A stretch of 64,000 bases of DNA, from NCBI GenBank assembly GCA_951406725.2, contig OX597814.1, positions 98,580,001 to 98,644,000 on the forward strand. Reading direction: 5' to 3'. The position numbers and the translations under genes were made by a program. The number at the start of each line of letters is the position of its first letter. Position 1 is the first letter of the stretch. This document shows, in pieces, positions 20,941 through 54,778 of the stretch. This DNA comes from Octopus vulgaris. Taxonomy: Eukaryota. Under the pieces are notes generated by a model. The model did not search any database. It saw only the letters and a program-made list of their open reading frames with translations, and was not told where the DNA came from.

Positions 20941-20942
<2 letters not shown>

Positions 20943-21453
20943 CTCAATACCACAGAATTCTGCTCAATACCACAGAATTCTGCTCAATACCACAGAATTC
21001 TGCTCAATACCACAGATTCTGCTCAATACCACAGAATTCTGCTCAATACCACAGAATTCTGCTCAATACCACAGAATTCTGCTCAATACCATAAATTCTG
21101 CTCAATACCACAGAATTCTGCTCAATACCACAGATTCTGCTCAATACCACAGAATTCTGCTCAATACCACAGAATTCTGCTCAATACCACAGAATTCTGC
21201 TCAATACCACAGATTCTGCTCAATACCACAGAATTCTGCTCAATACCACAGAATTCTGCTCAATACCACAGAATTCTGCTCAATACCACAGATTCTGCTC
21301 AATACCACAGAATTCTGCTCAATACCACAGAATTCTGCTCAATACCACAGAATTCTGCTCAATACCACAGAATTCTGCTCAATACCACAGAATTCTGCTC
21401 AATACCACAGATTCTGCTCAATACCACAGAATTCTGCTCAATACCACAGATTT
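20941..21453 (+). repeat. 20/19-bp minisatellite (tgctcaataccacagaattc), about 26 units
   Basis: Direct count: 25 full units plus a final unit that runs into the adjacent element. Confidence 0.95.
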
Positions 21454-34448: not shown

Positions 34449-35647
34449 TAAGTGGCTGTTGGAACAGAATACATATGAACCCAACTTTACAATTTTCAAC
34501 TGAAAACTCAACTGAAAATTCTTCCTTCTCAAAAACGACAAAGCCTTAATTCCAGTGAAAGCTACGTTTTTGTATCGTGAACACGTATTATGAAAGATAT
34601 AATACTGTAACGATCATAATAATTATTCGTAAGTACACAATATTCCTATTAACAAACACACAATAGTTTACATTATCTCAGAACTATAACATATACCAGT
34701 ACTACTGTCTCCTACTGTTCAATACACCACAGAAGTTGATATTTTGAATATTTCTATCCTTAGTTGCCATTACCTATATTTATTACCTATATTTACTGTT
34801 ATTATCTATATTTCTTGTTGCACAAACAACTTGGTTAAGTGACCAACAACGAATCGAAGACACTGAAAAACAATAGGTAGCTCACAACAACAGTAACAAA
34901 AAAACACATCTCTAAATATCGCAACTGGTCGTACATTGAAGTGGAAACTTTCATTAACTCATGGTTCATTCTCTTTCAAACCGATAACATACATGCCTCA
35001 AACTTCAATTTCATTGCTAAAAGAGTTGGCCATCTCTTTAATAACCCTGCTTCATATCTCACTGTGAGAAACCTGTAATCACGTGGATAAACTAGCCCGA
35101 AATTTTTTACTCACCACAGCCCATTTAATGTTATTATCTATATTTTTTTGTTGCACAAACAACTTGGTTAAGTGATCAACAACGAATCGAAGACACTGAA
35201 AAACAATAAATAGTTCACAACAACAGCAACAGTAACAAATAAAAACACATCTTTAAATATTGCAACTGGTCATATATTGAAGTGGATACAACTACAACAT
35301 TCACATCAGCAGCTAAAAGAACTAATAGACCCGTCATTATCATCATCATCATTGTTTCCATCTTCTACTGCTACTTCCCCTTCTTCATCTTCTCTCCCCC
35401 TCCTCCTGCTACTACTCCTAGTGGCCAAAGCCAAACATTCCATTCTACCTCGCCAGTGACCCATCCCAACCACTCTTACTTTCTCCATATCCCACCACCA
35501 TAGCTCCACTAACAACTCAAGTACCATTGCTACTACTACTACTATCTCAGCCAGTGTACAAAATCAACCACTGCTCCTTCCCCCTCTCCATTCAAGTCAA
35601 ACAATTCTAAATCTCAAGCTATTCACAATCCACCGCCCACATAAACG

Positions 35648-37057
35648 ATGACGGGTAACGGAAATCCACGGACTGTCAGCTCAGAGAGCAACACTTGCCT
35701 GGCCACAGACATCATATTGAAAATCATCTCATCAACACAAAATCAAGATATAAAAAGTGTCTTGTCGAAATATGATATCAAACAGGAAAGTGGAGCAATA
35801 TACAAAAATATTTTCACCAACTGTAAGTTTACGATGTTAAAGAAAGCAGCAGCTTTCTTGAATGATGGTGTCCAAGTTGAGCTCACAAAACCAAACCTCA
35901 CCAACTGGATTATAGCAAGGATTGAAAACTTCCTCCCGGAGACTTGCAAAATGTGTGACAAACAGTACTGCATTACATTTGGCCAAAAACCAGCTTTGGC
36001 ATGCTTCATCTGTGGACAAGGAATACACGAAGCGTGCTACTTAAAAAAGATAAATAACCACATCATTCCAGATATTCTAGGCCTACACTGGCTATGCAGT
36101 TATTGTTCACCAAGGGCCACAATAACGAATGAACCTAGGACCCTACCACAGACAGGCCGTTCTAAACAGACATTGATTGGCGAAACTGACATGGCAAATA
36201 AATCCTGCCACACACAGGCCATCCAAGTGCCTCTTGTAAATGACAAGAATGAAGACAATGACATGCAAACACCTACAAAACAAGAAACAGGAGATCCTGC
36301 AGAAAAAGACCAAACTTCCCACGAAAAGAAACAGATCCAGAGCAAACGCTCAAATGAAGGAAGGCCAGTATGTATCCATTACAGGCGCAACAAGTGCAAA
36401 CATGGTCTTTCAGGTACAGGGTGCATGTACAGTCACCCCAAACCATGCAGACCATATATCAACTTCGGTACTGATCGAAAAAAAGGATGCCAAAATGGCC
36501 GAGAATGTGAACTCCTTCACCCAAAGATGTGCCGCAATTCGCTGAGAAAAAAAGAATGTTTTGGTAAGAATTGCAAATTTATGCACCGGAAGGGTACAAT
36601 TCGCATAAAAACTACTGAACCCACACCACCAGGACCAAGCTCAGCAGGGTATGAAAACCATTTCCCAAAAATGCGGAAACCAGGTCATGGCTCAGCAGGG
36701 TATGAAAACCATTTCCCAAAAATGCGGAACCCAGGTCATGGCTCAACAGTGAATGAAAATCATGCTACTCAATTGCATACATCAGCTGTAACAAACCCAA
36801 ACTCGCAGAAATTCGATATAGTAATGAATGAAAGCAGTTTTTTAGGCATAATCTACCAACTACAACAACAGCTGTACTCCATACAGACGACTCAGCAAAA
36901 CCAGGCAACATTGATACAAAGGCTGACACCTGGACTTACAGGGCACGTACAACAAATACAGACAGCCCAGCAGACCGAATATCCAGTCAGCACAGTCCCA
37001 GCAACTACAACAGTCTTGCCAACAATAGGGCAGATGTATCCGGTACAACAAGCATAA
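35648..37057 (+). CDS. LINE ORF1p with PHD-like finger and tandem CCCH-type fingers
   Basis: CKMC..CFIC..HEAC..WLCSYC; CIHYRRNKCKHG..CMYSH, CRPY..C..CELLH, CRNS..C..CKFMH; intact 469 aa. Confidence 0.85.
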   Translation: MTGNGNPRTVSSESNTCLATDIILKIISSTQNQDIKSVLSKYDIKQESGAIYKNIFTNCKFTMLKKAAAFLNDGVQVELTKPNLTNWIIARIENFLPETCKMCDKQYCITFGQKPALACFICGQGIHEACYLKKINNHIIPDILGLHWLCSYCSPRATITNEPRTLPQTGRSKQTLIGETDMANKSCHTQAIQVPLVNDKNEDNDMQTPTKQETGDPAEKDQTSHEKKQIQSKRSNEGRPVCIHYRRNKCKHGLSGTGCMYSHPKPCRPYINFGTDRKKGCQNGRECELLHPKMCRNSLRKKECFGKNCKFMHRKGTIRIKTTEPTPPGPSSAGYENHFPKMRKPGHGSAGYENHFPKMRNPGHGSTVNENHATQLHTSAVTNPNSQKFDIVMNESSFLGIIYQLQQQLYSIQTTQQNQATLIQRLTPGLTGHVQQIQTAQQTEYPVSTVPATTTVLPTIGQMYPVQQA

Positions 37058-40033
37058 TAACAGCAAATATCCAGGGTCTTTATCCGAAAACAAAACAGTG
37101 TAAAGTCCCTTTCTTGGAAGAATTAGCAACAGAAAACAACTCCAAAATAATTGGAATTACTGAAAATCATCTCAACGAAAACATCCGCAACAGCGAAATC
37201 ACAATCAATAGATTCAACATCTTCAGATGTGATAGACAAGGCAGATCCCATGGGGGCGTTATCATGTATATCCATGATACCTATGCATGCATAGAACTTG
37301 TCAATGAATCAAATGCCTACTGCAACCTACTGTGCATAAAAATCATCCAACTTAATACAGTTGTAACAATAATGTACAGACCGCCAAACAGCCCAACATT
37401 ATCCTTGACTGAGCCACTGACGAAGCTCCAACAAATTCTGGGAAACATGGCAAGTCCAATGCCTGACATTATCCTCCTTGGTGACTTCAACTTCCCTAAC
37501 ATCATCTGGCCACATGGACACATACTAAAACTGGGGACAAAAGCTGAACAAATACAGGCAGCCAAACTGTTGGAAGTCACAGAGAAATTATACCTCAAAC
37601 AAATGATGACAGAAGCAACAAGAAATAATAATACGATCGACTTGGTTTTCACCAACAACGAGGACACGCTATTTGACCTTCACTCAACCCCAACAATCCT
37701 TTCAGACCACAATATTATTGAAATGCATTTACACATTGGTAATGAGCCCAATGCCACAACTCTTAAACAAAAGGACATGCCAAAGCTATGCAGGTATGAT
37801 TATCACCAGGCAAATTGGGAAACTATTAACAACCAGTTACAAATCATTGACTGGGATCTCTACCTTACTGGGCCAGATAAACACAAGAAATTCTTAAACA
37901 AGATCGAAGAAATATGTGAAAAAAATGTTCCTCTAAAGAAAACCAAGTCCACAAAAAAACCTGTACCACGGGAGCGAAAGATCCTGATGCGCAAAAGGTC
38001 AAGACTAAGAAACAAAACATCTAAGCTGACATCAAAACATGAATTACAGAAAGTCCTTGACCAAATATACAGATTAGAAGACAATCTAAAACAACACTAT
38101 GATGAAGAACGTAACAATGCACAAAAGAAAGCCATAGAAAACATCAAGAAAAATCCAAAATGTTTCTACAGTTTTGCAAAGAAATACTCGAACACCAAGT
38201 CAACAATAGGACCTCTCCAGAGACAAAATGGGGATGTAGTGAATAACCCTATTGAAATGGCAGAAATGTTGGGTCAACAGTATGAAAGTGTCTTCAGTGA
38301 GCCATCTAAAACCATGAAGATCCATGACCCAGGAAAATTCTTCAAGGATATCGACCATACTAAACCTACCCTATCCGACATTGATTTCAACCCAGAAGAC
38401 ATAGCAAGAGCAATAGACAAGCTCTCCATGCACTCGGCTGCGGGGCCTGACGGTTTCAATGCCATGATACTTAAAAACTGCAAGGCACAATTGTCGAAAC
38501 CCCTTTACATGATATGGAGGGAATCTATGGAGAATGGCAAAATACCAAATACATATAAAGAAGCACACATAACTCCAATACATAAAGGGGATAGCAAATC
38601 AAAACCAAAGAACTACCGACCAATCTCACTGACATCACACATTATCAAGGTCTTCGAAAGAATAGTTCGTGGAAAACTGGTTGAGTTCCTGGAATCCAAC
38701 AATCTGATGAATTGCAACCAGCATGGATTCAGGTTAGGTAGATCATGCCTTTCCCAACTACTGGCACACCATGACCAAATCCTAGAAAATCTAGAGAATG
38801 GATACAACACAGATGTTATCTACCTCGACTTTGCCAAGGCATTTGACAATGTAGATCATGGCATCCTGGGTCACAAACTTCGAAAGCTAGGAGTAGGAGG
38901 AAAAGTTGGTACATGGATACACGAGTTCCTTACAAATAGAACTCAAACAGTCACTGTGAATGGAACCCATTCAACACCATCACCTGTGACCAGCAGTGTT
39001 CCTCAGGGTACAGTACTCGGCCCAATCCTGTTTCTCATCCTCATCTCTGACATAGATGAAGATACAACCAGCAACGTCTCATCCTTTGCTGATGACACCA
39101 GGGTCATGAGACAAATCAAAGACGAGGTGGATACAGAGGCCTTACAAAAGGACCTGACCACCATATATAAATGGCAGGAAACAAACAACATGTTGTTCAA
39201 TGATAAGAAGTTTGAACTAATTCGCTACGGAACAGATCAAGATCTGAAAAATACAACAAACTACAGAAACCCATCAGGACAACAAATAATGGAAAAACAG
39301 TATGTGAAAGATTTAGGCATCCACATGGGAACCAACCTAAAATTCAGAGAACACCTTGACTCAGTCTGTCTTACTGCAAGAAAGTACAGCGGGTGGATCT
39401 TGCGCACCTTCAAATCAAGAGATACCTCAACAATGAAAACCCTCTGGAACAGTATGATACTTCCGAGGATTGACTACTGTTCTCAGTTGTGGTCACCAAC
39501 AACAAAGGGCCAACTATCTAAGATAGAATCGCTCCAAAGAAATTTTACCTCATACTTCTCAGAAACGAGGGACCTGGACTATTGGCAAAGACTCAAAACC
39601 TTGAGGATGTACTCAATAGAAAGAAGATTTGAGCGTTACCGAATTATATACATTTGGAAAATGATAGAGCAGAAGGTGCCAAACTTTGGTATCAAAACCT
39701 ACCACTCACTGCGCCACGGAAGACGCTGCCAGCTGCCACCAATCAACAAAAAGGCTGGCCAGGCAGCAAAAACCCTGCGAGAATCAAGTCTGTTGGTTCG
39801 AGGAGCACAACTGTTCAACTCCATTCCGGTACATGTCAGGATGCAGTGTGGAATCATTCAAATTGCAACTGGATAGATACTTAAGCACCATTAGAGATGA
39901 ACCCCATCTCCCAGGATATACACAACGAGCACAAACTGACTCAAACTCGCTCCTACACATGTCAAATTTAAGCAGAGAATACAACCTGGCAACCACACCA
40001 GACTCTGAGGGTGGAGTCTTCGACTTGGCCTGA
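36832..40033 (+). CDS. LINE ORF2p (AP endonuclease + reverse transcriptase) with one late frameshift near 39835
   Basis: ANIQGL, GITENHL, YRPP, GDFN, IDLVF, SDH; YRPISLTS, QHGFR, LDFAKAFD, VPQGTVLGP, FADD; C-terminus continues MSGCSVESFKLQLDRYL in another frame. Confidence 0.9.
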
Positions 40034-47163: not shown

Positions 47164-47199
<36 letters not shown>

Positions 47200-47826
47200 C
47201 TGTCATGCATTTGGGTGTCAGAAGTGAAAGTAGAGAAATCTGACGTCAGACGTCAACTTCGTGTATTTACGTCGTCTTTCGTTTATTTACGCCGTTTATT
47301 TACGTACCACTGAAATGCAAGTAAAAGCTTGTATGTATGTATGTATGTATGTATATATATATACATACATACACACATATATATAATATACATGTATATA
47401 TACATATATATATATATATATTTAATACATACATATATATAATATATACATGTATTTTTACCGCCTTTAGTCGCACAAATCGACCCCAGAACTTATTCTA
47501 TCGGTCTTTTTCTTAACCACTATACATTATATACATACATACAGATAGATAGATAGATACACACACACACATATAATAGATATAAAATGTGTACGTGTGT
47601 ACATTTTTCAGAAAAAAATTCATACATTTTAAATATCAATAGCATTTCTCTTATTTTTTACATGAAGTTTTCGAAAAATGAATTTAGAATGTAAAAATCA
47701 AATATATCAAATTAATAAACGCAAATTATTTTCAAATATCATTTTCAACGGTGAGATTATCAAAATATAAACTTGAAGTTAAGTTTAAAAATAAATGCGA
47801 TACTCATTCTGTCTTGATACTTATGC

Positions 47827-48357
47827 TCAAATACATGGATATAGCTGTCGAATTTGTTCTATCAACTTCCCGAATATATCATCCTTAAATTCATAGCACC
47901 ACATGAATTCGATGAGATGGGTCTGAAGTAAATTTCTGGCTGTTCCACATTCTCTCCTATTTCGAGTCTTTACGTGTTTCCATAAACATTCTATGTGGTT
48001 GGTTGTGGCAAATGTTACCGGATCAACAAAATTTATAGAATGATTCACGGTCAAATGTCTGTATCCTAGCTGACTGAGTGTATTATACGAACGCCAAAGG
48101 TCGGATATTATTGTTGTACCAGGCAATATACGCTCGCGTATAATCTGTAATAGAGTGTCCGCTGTTCGATTTTCAACTGCCACTAAAATACATCTTCTGC
48201 TATCTCTTTCTAATGCACCAAACACCCATTGCGTTTTAACCCGATGGCCAACATGATATTTTCTCTTAACAAACGCAGTTTCATCTATTTCAACGATTCT
48301 ATTGGGTCCTCCCAGTTTAATATTCTGTGCAACATAATATTCTGCACATACATCGCA
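47827..48357 (-). pseudogene. Merlin DDE transposase catalytic domain, N-terminally truncated (left arm)
   Basis: DVCAEYYVAQNIKLGGPNRIVEIDETAF..KRKYH..QWVFG..TIISDLWRSY..VNHS..FVDP..TNHIECLW. Confidence 0.88.
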
Positions 48358-48436
48358 GAATGTATGTGCAGAATATTATGTTGCACAGAATATTAAACTA
48401 TGTGCAGAATATTATGTTGCACAGAATATATATATA

Positions 48437-48918
48437 GACCCAATAGAATCGTTGAAATAGATGAAACTGCGTTTGTTAAGAGAAAATATCATGTTGGCCA
48501 TCGGGTTAAAACGCAATGGGTGTTTGGTGCATTAGAAAGAGATAGCAGAAGATGTATTTTAGTGGCAGTTGAAAATCGAACAGCGGACACTCTATTACAG
48601 ATTATACGCGAGCGTATATTGCCTGGTACAACAATAATATCCGACCTTTGGCGTTCGTATAATACACTCAGTCAGCTAGGATACAGACATTTGACCGTGA
48701 ATCATTCTATAAATTTTGTTGATCCGGTAACATTTGCCACAACCAACCACATAGAATGTTTATGGAAACACGTAAAGACTCGAAATAGGAGAGAATGTGG
48801 AACAGCCAGAAATTTACTTCAGACCCATCTCATCGAATTCATGTGGTGCTATGAATTTAAGGATGATATATTCGGGAAGTTGATAGAACAAATTCGACAG
48901 CTATATCCATGTATTTGA
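48437..48918 (+). pseudogene. Merlin DDE transposase catalytic domain, N-terminally truncated (right arm)
   Basis: Same translation as the left arm from PNRIVEIDE to QLYPCI*. Confidence 0.88.
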
Positions 48919-49565
48919 GCATAAGTATCAAGACAGAATGAGTATCGCATTTATTTTTAAACTTAACTTCAAGTTTATATTTTGATAATCTCACCGTTGA
49001 AAATGATATTTGAAAATAATTTGCGTTTATTAATTTGATATATTTGATTTTTACATTCTAAATTCATTTTTCGAAAACTTCATGTAAAAAATAAGAGAAA
49101 TGCTATTGATATTTAAAATGTATGAATTTTTTTCTGAAAAATGTACACACGTACACATTTTATATCTATTATATGTGTGTGTGTGTATCTATCTATCTAT
49201 CTGTATGTATGTATATAATGTATAGTGGTTAAGAAAAAAGACCGATAGAATAAGTTCTGGGGTCGATTTGTGCGACTAAAGGCGGTAAAAATACATGTAT
49301 ATATTATATATATGTATGTATTAAATATATATATATATGTATATATACATGTATATTATATATATGTGTGTATGTATGTATATATATATATATATACATA
49401 CATACAAGCTTTTACTTGCATTTCAGTGGTACGTAAATAAACGGCGTAAATAAACGAAAGACGACGTAAATACACGAAGTTGACGTCTGACGTCAGATTT
49501 CTCTACTTTCACTTCTGACACCCAAATGCATGACAGTGCCATATATATATATATATATATAAATG

Positions 49566-53165: not shown

Positions 53166-53168
<3 letters not shown>

Positions 53169-54778
53169 TGGCGGCCAAAATGTTCAGAACGGCATTGTTT
53201 TCGTTAGAAAAGTAAGTATAAGTTTTTATCAAAGTAGTTTTATATTCTATAATTTTCACAGACAATAAATACAATATTAGTTGTTATTGTCTGTGATTTC
53301 GGTGTAATTTGAGAGGATAATATAAAAGTTATAGATGATTTAGTGATTTACTGCAAAACCCATGGCGGCCAAAATGATCAGAACGGTTGAAAAATAACAA
53401 AATAATCAAAAATGACAGAGAATACTGGAATTATTTAATATTTAGTGTGAAGCCCTTTAGCTTCAATCACACTCTGACATCTTCGACTGCATGAGGAAAT
53501 TAAATTTTCAATTTCTTGCTGGGTGATCTTATTCCATTCTTCCTGAAGGGCATTCCATAATTGCTCAGTTGTTTTAGGATTTCTGGCTTTCAAACGTTCT
53601 CCTAGAATATTCCATACATTTTCAATAGGATTGAGATCTGGGCTTTGAGCAGGCCAATCCATAACAATAACCTTTTCAGCCTTGAGGAAGTTCATGACCA
53701 CCTTAGCCTTGTGACATGGGGCATTGTCCTGCATGAATATGGGTGGTCGCTTAGTTGAATTTCTCAGCACAGGCAAGACATGATCTTTTGCAAATTGTTT
53801 ATAAACTCCTGCATTTACCTTTTCATGTAATCGCACCAAAGGGCCCACACCATCTCCAGATATCATCTCCCAAACTATGACGCTTCCTCCACCGAATTTA
53901 ACAGTAGTCTTAAGGCATTTAGGCAACAATTTGTCACCTACTTTTCTACGAACGTACCTTTTCCCATCTGAGCCAAATAACATAAACTTAGATTCATCAC
54001 TGAAATGCACCGTTTGCCATTTTTCTTGAGACCACAACACATGTTCTGTTGCAAAGGTAAGACGACACTTTTTATTCCTGGAGCTGATCAGTGGCTTCAC
54101 TGCAGGTGCTCTTGCTTGTAGGTCATGTTCAACTAAACGATGAGACACAGTTTTTCGAGATAAAGTTTTCCTCAATACAATGCTCATTTTCCGAGAAACA
54201 GCAGCAGCAGTTTTAAATCTGTCCTTTTTAACCAACTTTACCATAGCACGATCTTCTCTCTTGGTCGTTTTTCTTGGCCTACCTGTAAACTTTCCACAAT
54301 CATCGTAGACCTTAAGGATACCGTGTACAACACTTTTTGACTTGTTAACAATCTTTGCAATAGATCCAATACTTAAATTATCCTTCCTTCGAAGCTTAAT
54401 AATCTGCTGACGAATTGGTAACGGAGTAAGTGGCATTATATTAAGAAAGTACACTGCAAATATTTTTACTAATGTTTAGTAAACGAACCGTCACGTAAAC
54501 AAATTCAAAACATTAGAGTTCGCCGGTTAAATATACTAAAACACGGAGTAAAAGCAACCGTTCTGATAATTTTGGCCGCCATGGGTTTTGCAGTAAATCA
54601 CTAAATCATCCATAACTTTTGTATTATCCTCTCAAATTACACCAAAGTCTCAGGCAATAACAAATAATATCGTATTTATTGTCTGTGAAAATTATAGAAT
54701 ACAAAACAACTTTGATAAAAAATTATATCTACTTTACTGACGAAAACAATGCTGTTCTGAACATTTTGGCCGCCACTG
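53166..54778 (-). mobile_element. Full-length Tc1-family transposon with about 225-bp IR/DR ends, in (TA)n
   Basis: TA-cagtggcggccaaaatgttcagaac ... gttctgaacattttggccgccactg-TA; inner repeats at about 53363-53389 and 54555-54582. Confidence 0.93.
53435..54436 (-). CDS. Tc1 DD34E transposase, uninterrupted ORF
   Basis: GRPRKTT, FSDESKF, QDNAPCH, WPAQSPDLNPIENVW; 34 residues between the second D and E; likely start MPLTP. Confidence 0.9.
   Translation of the reverse strand: MPLTPLPIRQQIIKLRRKDNLSIGSIAKIVNKSKSVVHGILKVYDDCGKFTGRPRKTTKREDRAMVKLVKKDRFKTAAAVSRKMSIVLRKTLSRKTVSHRLVEHDLQARAPAVKPLISSRNKKCRLTFATEHVLWSQEKWQTVHFSDESKFMLFGSDGKRYVRRKVGDKLLPKCLKTTVKFGGGSVIVWEMISGDGVGPLVRLHEKVNAGVYKQFAKDHVLPVLRNSTKRPPIFMQDNAPCHKAKVVMNFLKAEKVIVMDWPAQSPDLNPIENVWNILGERLKARNPKTTEQLWNALQEEWNKITQQEIENLISSCSRRCQSVIEAKGLHTKY

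Follow-up and report, generated by a model that had tools for sequence, protein, structure and literature searches.

A Merlin foldback with two left-type ends in Octopus vulgaris and its likely origin from a mobile palindrome

Structure of the foldback and its central junction

In the window, by which we mean the whole 64-kb stretch of Octopus vulgaris DNA analysed here, the assembly sequence contains a foldback of 2,345 bp at 47196-49540 that starts with GG, ends with CC and consists for the most part of two arms of ~1.15 kb within its 2.35 kb. From left to right, the element and its flanks comprise the following features:

47188-47195, no strand: left flank, ATATATAT, a possible 8-bp target duplication within an (AT)n run
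47196-47310, + strand: left terminus, a type-A (ancestral left) Merlin end with a private A at position 14 (from end typing)
47309-47683, + strand: captured microsatellite-rich DNA of ~375 bp, with its source at G000:C19:50.59 Mb (L026; from a sequence match)
47684-47826, - strand: transposase 3' untranslated region with one 46-bp subterminal repeat unit (from sequence comparison)
47827-48356, - strand: left arm, transposase codons ~126-300, with the DDE core and no N-terminus (from Pfam and comparison with the parent)
48314-48399, no strand: central 40-bp perfect palindrome (48314-48353 and 48360-48399) around a 6-nt loop (48354-48359; read from the sequence)
48400-48436, + strand: 30-bp re-copy (48400-48429) of 48364-48393, then a 7-nt TA filler, replacing GGGAG (read from the sequence)
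48437-48918, + strand: right arm, transposase DDE core through the stop codon, without a difference from the left arm or from a foldback on C20 (100% identity; from alignment)
48919-49425, + strand: right-arm 3' untranslated region and captured insert, the mirror of the left arm (from alignment)
49426-49540, - strand: right terminus, a second type-A end with the same private variant (from end typing)
49541-49548, no strand: right flank, ATATATAT, adjoining the right terminus in an (AT)n run

An earlier note had described this locus as two 3' halves of a Merlin transposon set head-to-head, with reverse-complementary arms that each carry a DDE core without an N-terminus, GG...CC ends flanked by atatatat, and a template-switch signature at the centre. 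Alignment of 47196-48308 with 48437-49540 bears out the symmetry of the arms, as 12 of 1,114 aligned columns differ (ten gap columns and one substitution in TA/TG microsatellites, and one T in a homopolymer) and 802 nt of the inverted arms are 100% complementary. Both arms match Pfam DDE_Tnp_IS1595 (E 3e-18 and 5e-18), and the N-terminus is indeed absent from each, codons ~1-125 of the 300-codon parent being gone together with the upstream region, so that neither arm retains the full-length transposase gene and upstream region of an autonomous Merlin. The terminal GG and CC and the atatatat flanks are present in the assembly as claimed; the identical flanks are compatible with an 8-bp target duplication and are no proof of one, since they are microsatellite and therefore uninformative on this point.

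The layout of the centre (palindrome, loop, re-copy and filler) was likewise found as described, with the refinement that the left arm tracks the parent up to 48356, leaving 48357-48359 as the only non-parental nucleotides. This 3-nt insertion completes a 7-mer present 13 nt downstream and, as far as sequence can tell, looks like templated end-joining of the kind linked to polymerase theta, so that the re-copy and the insertion both support templated repair at the centre. The re-copy also supplies an in-frame ATG at 48400 that opens a 172-codon, DDE-only frame (48400-48918), and no promoter was seen for this 172-residue catalytic-core frame. The central junction is single-copy in the assembly: a genome search for further copies of it, which the earlier note had called for, returned none besides that in the window.

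Near-identical arms, which an assembly consensus can itself yield, and a junction contained in no independent run (best word share 0.71 among the 24 runs listed; none of the four compared directly) would be expected if a palindromic read or a mis-join of two copies had generated the foldback during sequencing or assembly. We regard such an artefact as extremely improbable, since the symmetry ends at the transposon, 21 nt past the termini inside the (AT)n run, with unrelated outer flanks; since the centre is asymmetric and bears templated insertions; and since C20 carries a further foldback, with a centre of its own, and run X2 a related joint. Three short adapter motifs are also absent from the centre. 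The junction of the window element is missing from the contigs of runs X1, X6, X5 and X2; as these contigs derive from other samples, its absence there neither confirms nor refutes the junction. In the X2 contig (346 nt, depth 8.18), a 10-nt re-copy links position 48354 to 48706 in head-to-head orientation, and the left arm ends within 2 bp of the breakpoint in the window; the joint is carried by a single contig with 30 nt on its short side and was not among the joints listed when X2 was compared with the related copy L016. Judged by its sequence, it is not the symmetric skip of a hairpin library artefact.

Other features of the window include a Tc1-type element at 53166-54778 that looks young; its inverted ends, CAGT...ACTG within TA runs, are ~230 bp long, and its - strand has an open frame of 346 codons matching Pfam HTH_Tnp_Tc3_2 and DDE_3. 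A LINE-like element on the + strand (35645-39873) has a 470-codon frame without a Pfam match, followed by an open frame of 1,014 codons that includes endonuclease and reverse transcriptase, and a 20-bp minisatellite of ~26 copies with 97% matches occupies 20941-21450.

End types and a clade of rearranged Merlin copies

The family was surveyed in the 2.8-Gb assembly of 227 contigs, in which the window lies on C1; the transposase search gave at least 47 matches, and the best 40 of 51 candidates were scored. This revealed that the element is a Merlin, as the earlier note had proposed from the letters of the window: DDE_Tnp_IS1595 is matched by both arms and by the copy L006 (E ~1e-18), the inverted termini start with GG, and sister copies are flanked by 8-bp target duplications, within the 8-9 bp expected of the superfamily and as its definition demands (PMC8101967). 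These duplications are perfect at L006, L007, L010, L011, L014 and L025 and have one mismatch at L008 and L041, while the left target duplication of L001 is imperfect. According to a repeat study of O. vulgaris, two recently active Merlin families with 11 insertions occur in this species (PMC13282606).

The family has two end types, A and B, which diverge beyond ~35 bp. Among the 11 copies outside the clade of the window element the 5' end is A in 10/10 typed and the 3' end is B in 7/7 typed, while A stands at the 3' end in the window element, L001, L004, L005, L007 and L015. The window element carries A at both termini, each on the 3' side of a gene half, a layout absent from all 11 copies outside the clade. 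The description as two 3' halves thus holds for the coding parts, whereas both termini are the ancestral left end. Two identical left-like ends are also found in an older Merlin subfamily that is non-coding and 460-880 bp long, and 5 of the 8 copies examined show perfect duplications, which indicates that two left ends can transpose. This MITE subfamily (L027-L033, L037 and L044), with arms of 200-390 bp, represents an independent origin of two-left-end foldbacks in the same family. Elsewhere in the family, a 110-bp element at L036:218-410 has two B-type ends, inverted flanks and then another end fragment, and ~13 tandem copies of the 46-bp subterminal repeat occupy one Merlin end at L007:300-870, a possible minisatellite seed.

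In a tree of a 482-bp core with 19 rows, the window arms group with L001, L004, L015 and L005 (100/100), nested in a group with L006 and L007 (100/98). In ordinary copies the sequence AATA-AATA-TATT, with a 4-bp stem around a 4-nt loop, stands ~200 bp before the start codon, and five of the six other clade loci turn, start or break at this one hairpin tip upstream of the transposase gene. The exception, L015 (doubled as L024), is truncated within the gene and carries no information on the tip. L006 (C8), with an intact gene and a perfect target duplication, turns on the tip: its left part opens with an A end and inverted 3' repeats, after which comes an inverted copy of the upstream region and the initial codons whose identity is 100% over 366 bp. 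L007, whose ends are swapped, is joined at this tip as well. L005/L016 (C20) and L004/L017 (C37) have no second end and begin at the tip, where they retain remnants of an opposite arm (7 bp and 4 bp, respectively) that are missing in ordinary copies. The one-ended half L016 has a 132-bp flank duplication with three mismatches, which ruled out an alternative description of its left junction as filler throughout.

The second foldback, L001 (C20:37.66 Mb), measures 2,103 bp and combines perfect arms of 820 bp with a different centre. Beyond its arms the inverted upstream region runs to the tip and then jumps into the gene 17 bp from the breakpoint of the window element, with microhomologies of 2 and 3 bp at the junctions. 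Both of its arms carry one substitution that the window element lacks, which implies that the arms were re-matched after the two loci split, and recently. L025 (C13) is a collapsed copy of 126 bp with a perfect 8-bp duplication. The end variant at position 14 is private to the window element, L001 and L025 among 9 exact matches to the clade terminus and 73 to the family terminus, and the two-A-end layout is found at two loci and likely at a third. The earlier note had suggested that two intact ends could allow mobilisation in trans as a nascent foldback element. The private variant at three loci indicates that elements with these two ends are mobile; the nascent part of the proposal did not survive, as the window element is by its sequence a member of a clade of rearranged copies and no one-off. 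Movement of this deleted form itself, whose junction is single-copy, would be hypothetical.

The A arms of the inner clade contain ~375 bp from C19:50.59 Mb, a capture of the kind that gap repair would produce. Other samples also have the A-arm type, as this insert adjoins the 3' region in runs X6 and X1; X1 in addition shows ordinary left-end sequence at the tip, and none of the joints listed for X6, X1, X2 and X8 on L016 lies at the tip. Between L004 and L005 there are 12 synonymous and 5 non-synonymous changes (dN/dS 0.11, binomial P 2e-5), a pattern that at the sequence level shows purifying selection on the clade transposase. As both loci carry tip remnants and yet have diverged in this manner, a functional enzyme probably sustained replication of the tip-bearing form over some period, although the signal could also stem from exchange with ordinary active copies.

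Two further candidates were rejected during the survey. Two outward-facing halves 56 kb apart on C27 had been considered as the bounds of a giant element; the inverted duplication was found to extend into their flanks (98.5% over 4.9 kb), and errors abound in the L024 copy. A fourth match to the tip pattern, on C12, is a lone 20-mer, and a control pattern also matched once. The C27 region (L018 and L024, G000:C27:22.60-22.66 Mb) is itself a several-kb inverted duplication with a truncated clade member, of which the error-rich copy may be an assembly duplicate.

A proposed mobile palindrome and competing origins

From the observed structures, end types, common variants and selection signal we infer a full palindrome, its mobility and an order of events. 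We consider it likely that the window element, a non-autonomous foldback with two left-type ends, was left by a mobile head-to-head palindrome of the whole transposon, ~3.5 kb in length, which inserted and then had its centre broken and repaired. The first step would be repair of an excision gap, in which synthesis would switch from the left end to the opposite strand of the 3' region, run backwards through the gene, and fold back on the repeat AATA-TATT-TATT upstream of the start codon (4-bp stem, 4-nt loop). A single repair event with two template switches would thus give end A, inverted gene, hairpin tip, gene and end B, and the loop orientation of L006 fits such an event. L006 and L007 would then be this A-B palindromic unit with one or the other arm deleted. 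In yeast, 4-bp stems beside a break can prime foldbacks (PMC7467729), and PMC7999016 and PMC7467729 describe a short stem beside a break that primes a hairpin, which on replication becomes a palindrome that undergoes secondary rearrangement.

In a second step, the A arm took up the ~375-bp insert from C19 and, in the order we propose, would later have been copied over the B arm to yield two A ends; the resulting A-A palindrome of ~3.5 kb would correspond to twice 1,768 bp less the loop. In a third, the A-A unit would have moved by means of its own transposase over a period sufficient for the signal of purifying selection to arise. Long spacer-less palindromes are prone to hairpin or cruciform breakage (PMC7999016 and PMC7467729), and in a fourth step the centre would have been cut site by site and rejoined with the short microhomologies or templated insertions that remain as scars. 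The window copy would in this way have lost ~1.25 kb at its centre, including both promoter regions and N-termini, and would now need transposase from another copy to move. No complete two-gene palindrome was found in the assembly among the best 40 candidates scored per search, and assemblers may drop sequence of this kind. The spacer of L001, taken alone, is explicable by an ordinary element, as the tip sequence is also its reverse complement, so that its tie to the tip lies in its end point only.

A fair rival, though an unlikely one in our estimate, is sister-chromatid (alternative) transposition, in which a half-element A end from each sister was inserted and the broken inner ends then fused, so that the inverted duplication would arise in a single step with no mobile full palindrome. 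Maize Ac composite insertions arise in this manner and carry one end in inverted repeat, the two arms being unequal (10.1101/2020.01.07.897926). One-ended A halves do exist (L016 and L017), the flank duplication of L016 is typical of aberrant insertion, and a different centre at each locus would be accounted for. This rival leaves unexplained, however, the spread of halves that start at the tip, with 6% synonymous divergence, and the 366-bp tip-centred palindrome of L006, and the flanks of the window element are not inverted past the (AT)n run.

Formation in place, in which a copy of ordinary layout broke in mid-gene and its 3' half was copied over its 5' half, would agree with the single-copy junction and its templated insertions, and Galileo lengthens its inverted repeats by recruiting internal sequence (PMC3573991). 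As no clade member with an ordinary 5' end could serve as parent, and as the private variant at both ends is common to two more loci, we judge this origin to be very unlikely.

An extension of the mobile-palindrome reading is that a Merlin lineage without a right end survives as a self-renewing palindrome, a possibility that we put forward tentatively. The centre would break upon each insertion, halves that keep the tip would re-prime copying and rebuild the two-left-end, two-gene palindrome, and this would jump again, shedding hairpin loci against its own family at each step.

Possible silencing and relation to known systems

The earlier note had also raised the possibility of a silencer resembling Mu killer, in which a read-through transcript would fold into a 1.1-kb hairpin and small RNAs from it would repress the family, a functional claim compatible with a palindrome origin. 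The locus shares with Mu killer and Ac killer the structure of an inverted transposon duplication with two like ends, and by analogy Mu killer likewise has two copies of one end (PMC3440606). A near-perfect RNA hairpin is predicted for 47900-48850 (-840 kcal/mol, z -67), as expected of any inverted repeat, and a LINE on the + strand 7 kb upstream with an open ORF2 would be the nearest candidate driver. Over part of the DDE core, the head-to-head contig is the sole piece listed for X2, a run not recorded as RNA, and no run recorded as RNA was among the 24 junction-search runs listed, which has no bearing on expression. Several observations weigh against the proposal: the promoter region of the transposase is deleted, the long frames scanned in the 64-kb window are transposon-derived or without assignment, with no host exon among them, and other inverted-repeat copies in the family (L001, L006 and the MITEs) leave nothing special about this locus. 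A silencing role therefore appears quite unlikely.

The origin of foldbacks and long inverted ends from cut-and-paste transposons is usually inferred from old, decayed copies. In one small young clade the stages can be seen together here: the ordinary element has the 4-bp seed repeat, other copies show a palindrome centred on the tip, exchanged ends or halves with a single end, and there are two foldbacks that have lost their centres and a product that has collapsed to 126 bp. Should the palindromic unit prove real, a transposon can run on two left ends, and these copies offer defined loci for testing foldback-started silencing in an animal; if it also renews itself, it would generate 'killer' alleles naturally in an animal.

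Neither Merlin elements nor foldback derivatives nor killers formed by inverted duplication are new in themselves. In a search of the main texts of open-access papers, we found no account of a Merlin lineage built as a whole-gene palindrome between two left ends, nor any described whole-element palindromic transposon or Merlin foldback that matched. Tc4/Tc4v of C. elegans is reportedly a near-whole-element foldback that includes a variant with the transposase in one arm, like L006; Tc4 belongs to another superfamily, and its arms are not known to be transposase sequence.

The present element resembles the Merlin superfamily (IS1595/IS1016-related; PMC8101967) in its GG termini, the 8-bp duplications of sister copies, DDE_Tnp_IS1595 and internal tandem repeats. 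The inverted repeats reported in that account span 24-462 bp, whereas the arms here are ~1.15 kb, include coding sequence and both bear the left end, and the string 'palindrom' is absent from its main text. Mu killer of maize MuDR is similarly a partial inverted duplication of transposase (~1.3 kb) with two copies of the same end, but it keeps the 5' part beside TIRA and its silencing is demonstrated (PMC3440606), whereas here the 3' coding part is kept at several loci and silencing is conjectural only. Composite insertions at Ac killer share inverted repeats of one end with fused broken inner ends; they are single events tied to duplications of 0.3-3.2 Mb (10.1101/2020.01.07.897926), in contrast to a clade with a common hairpin tip and purifying selection. 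Galileo 2RT copies and Drosophila foldback elements likewise have inverted repeats grown from internal sequence, and their longest arms occur in non-autonomous copies, but the parts they recruited are mostly flanking and non-coding, and the available portion of PMC3573991 contains no whole-gene palindrome. Finally, fold-back priming is known for chromosome arms (PMC7999016 and PMC7467729), whereas the palindrome proposed here would be bounded by transposon ends and so would be excisable.
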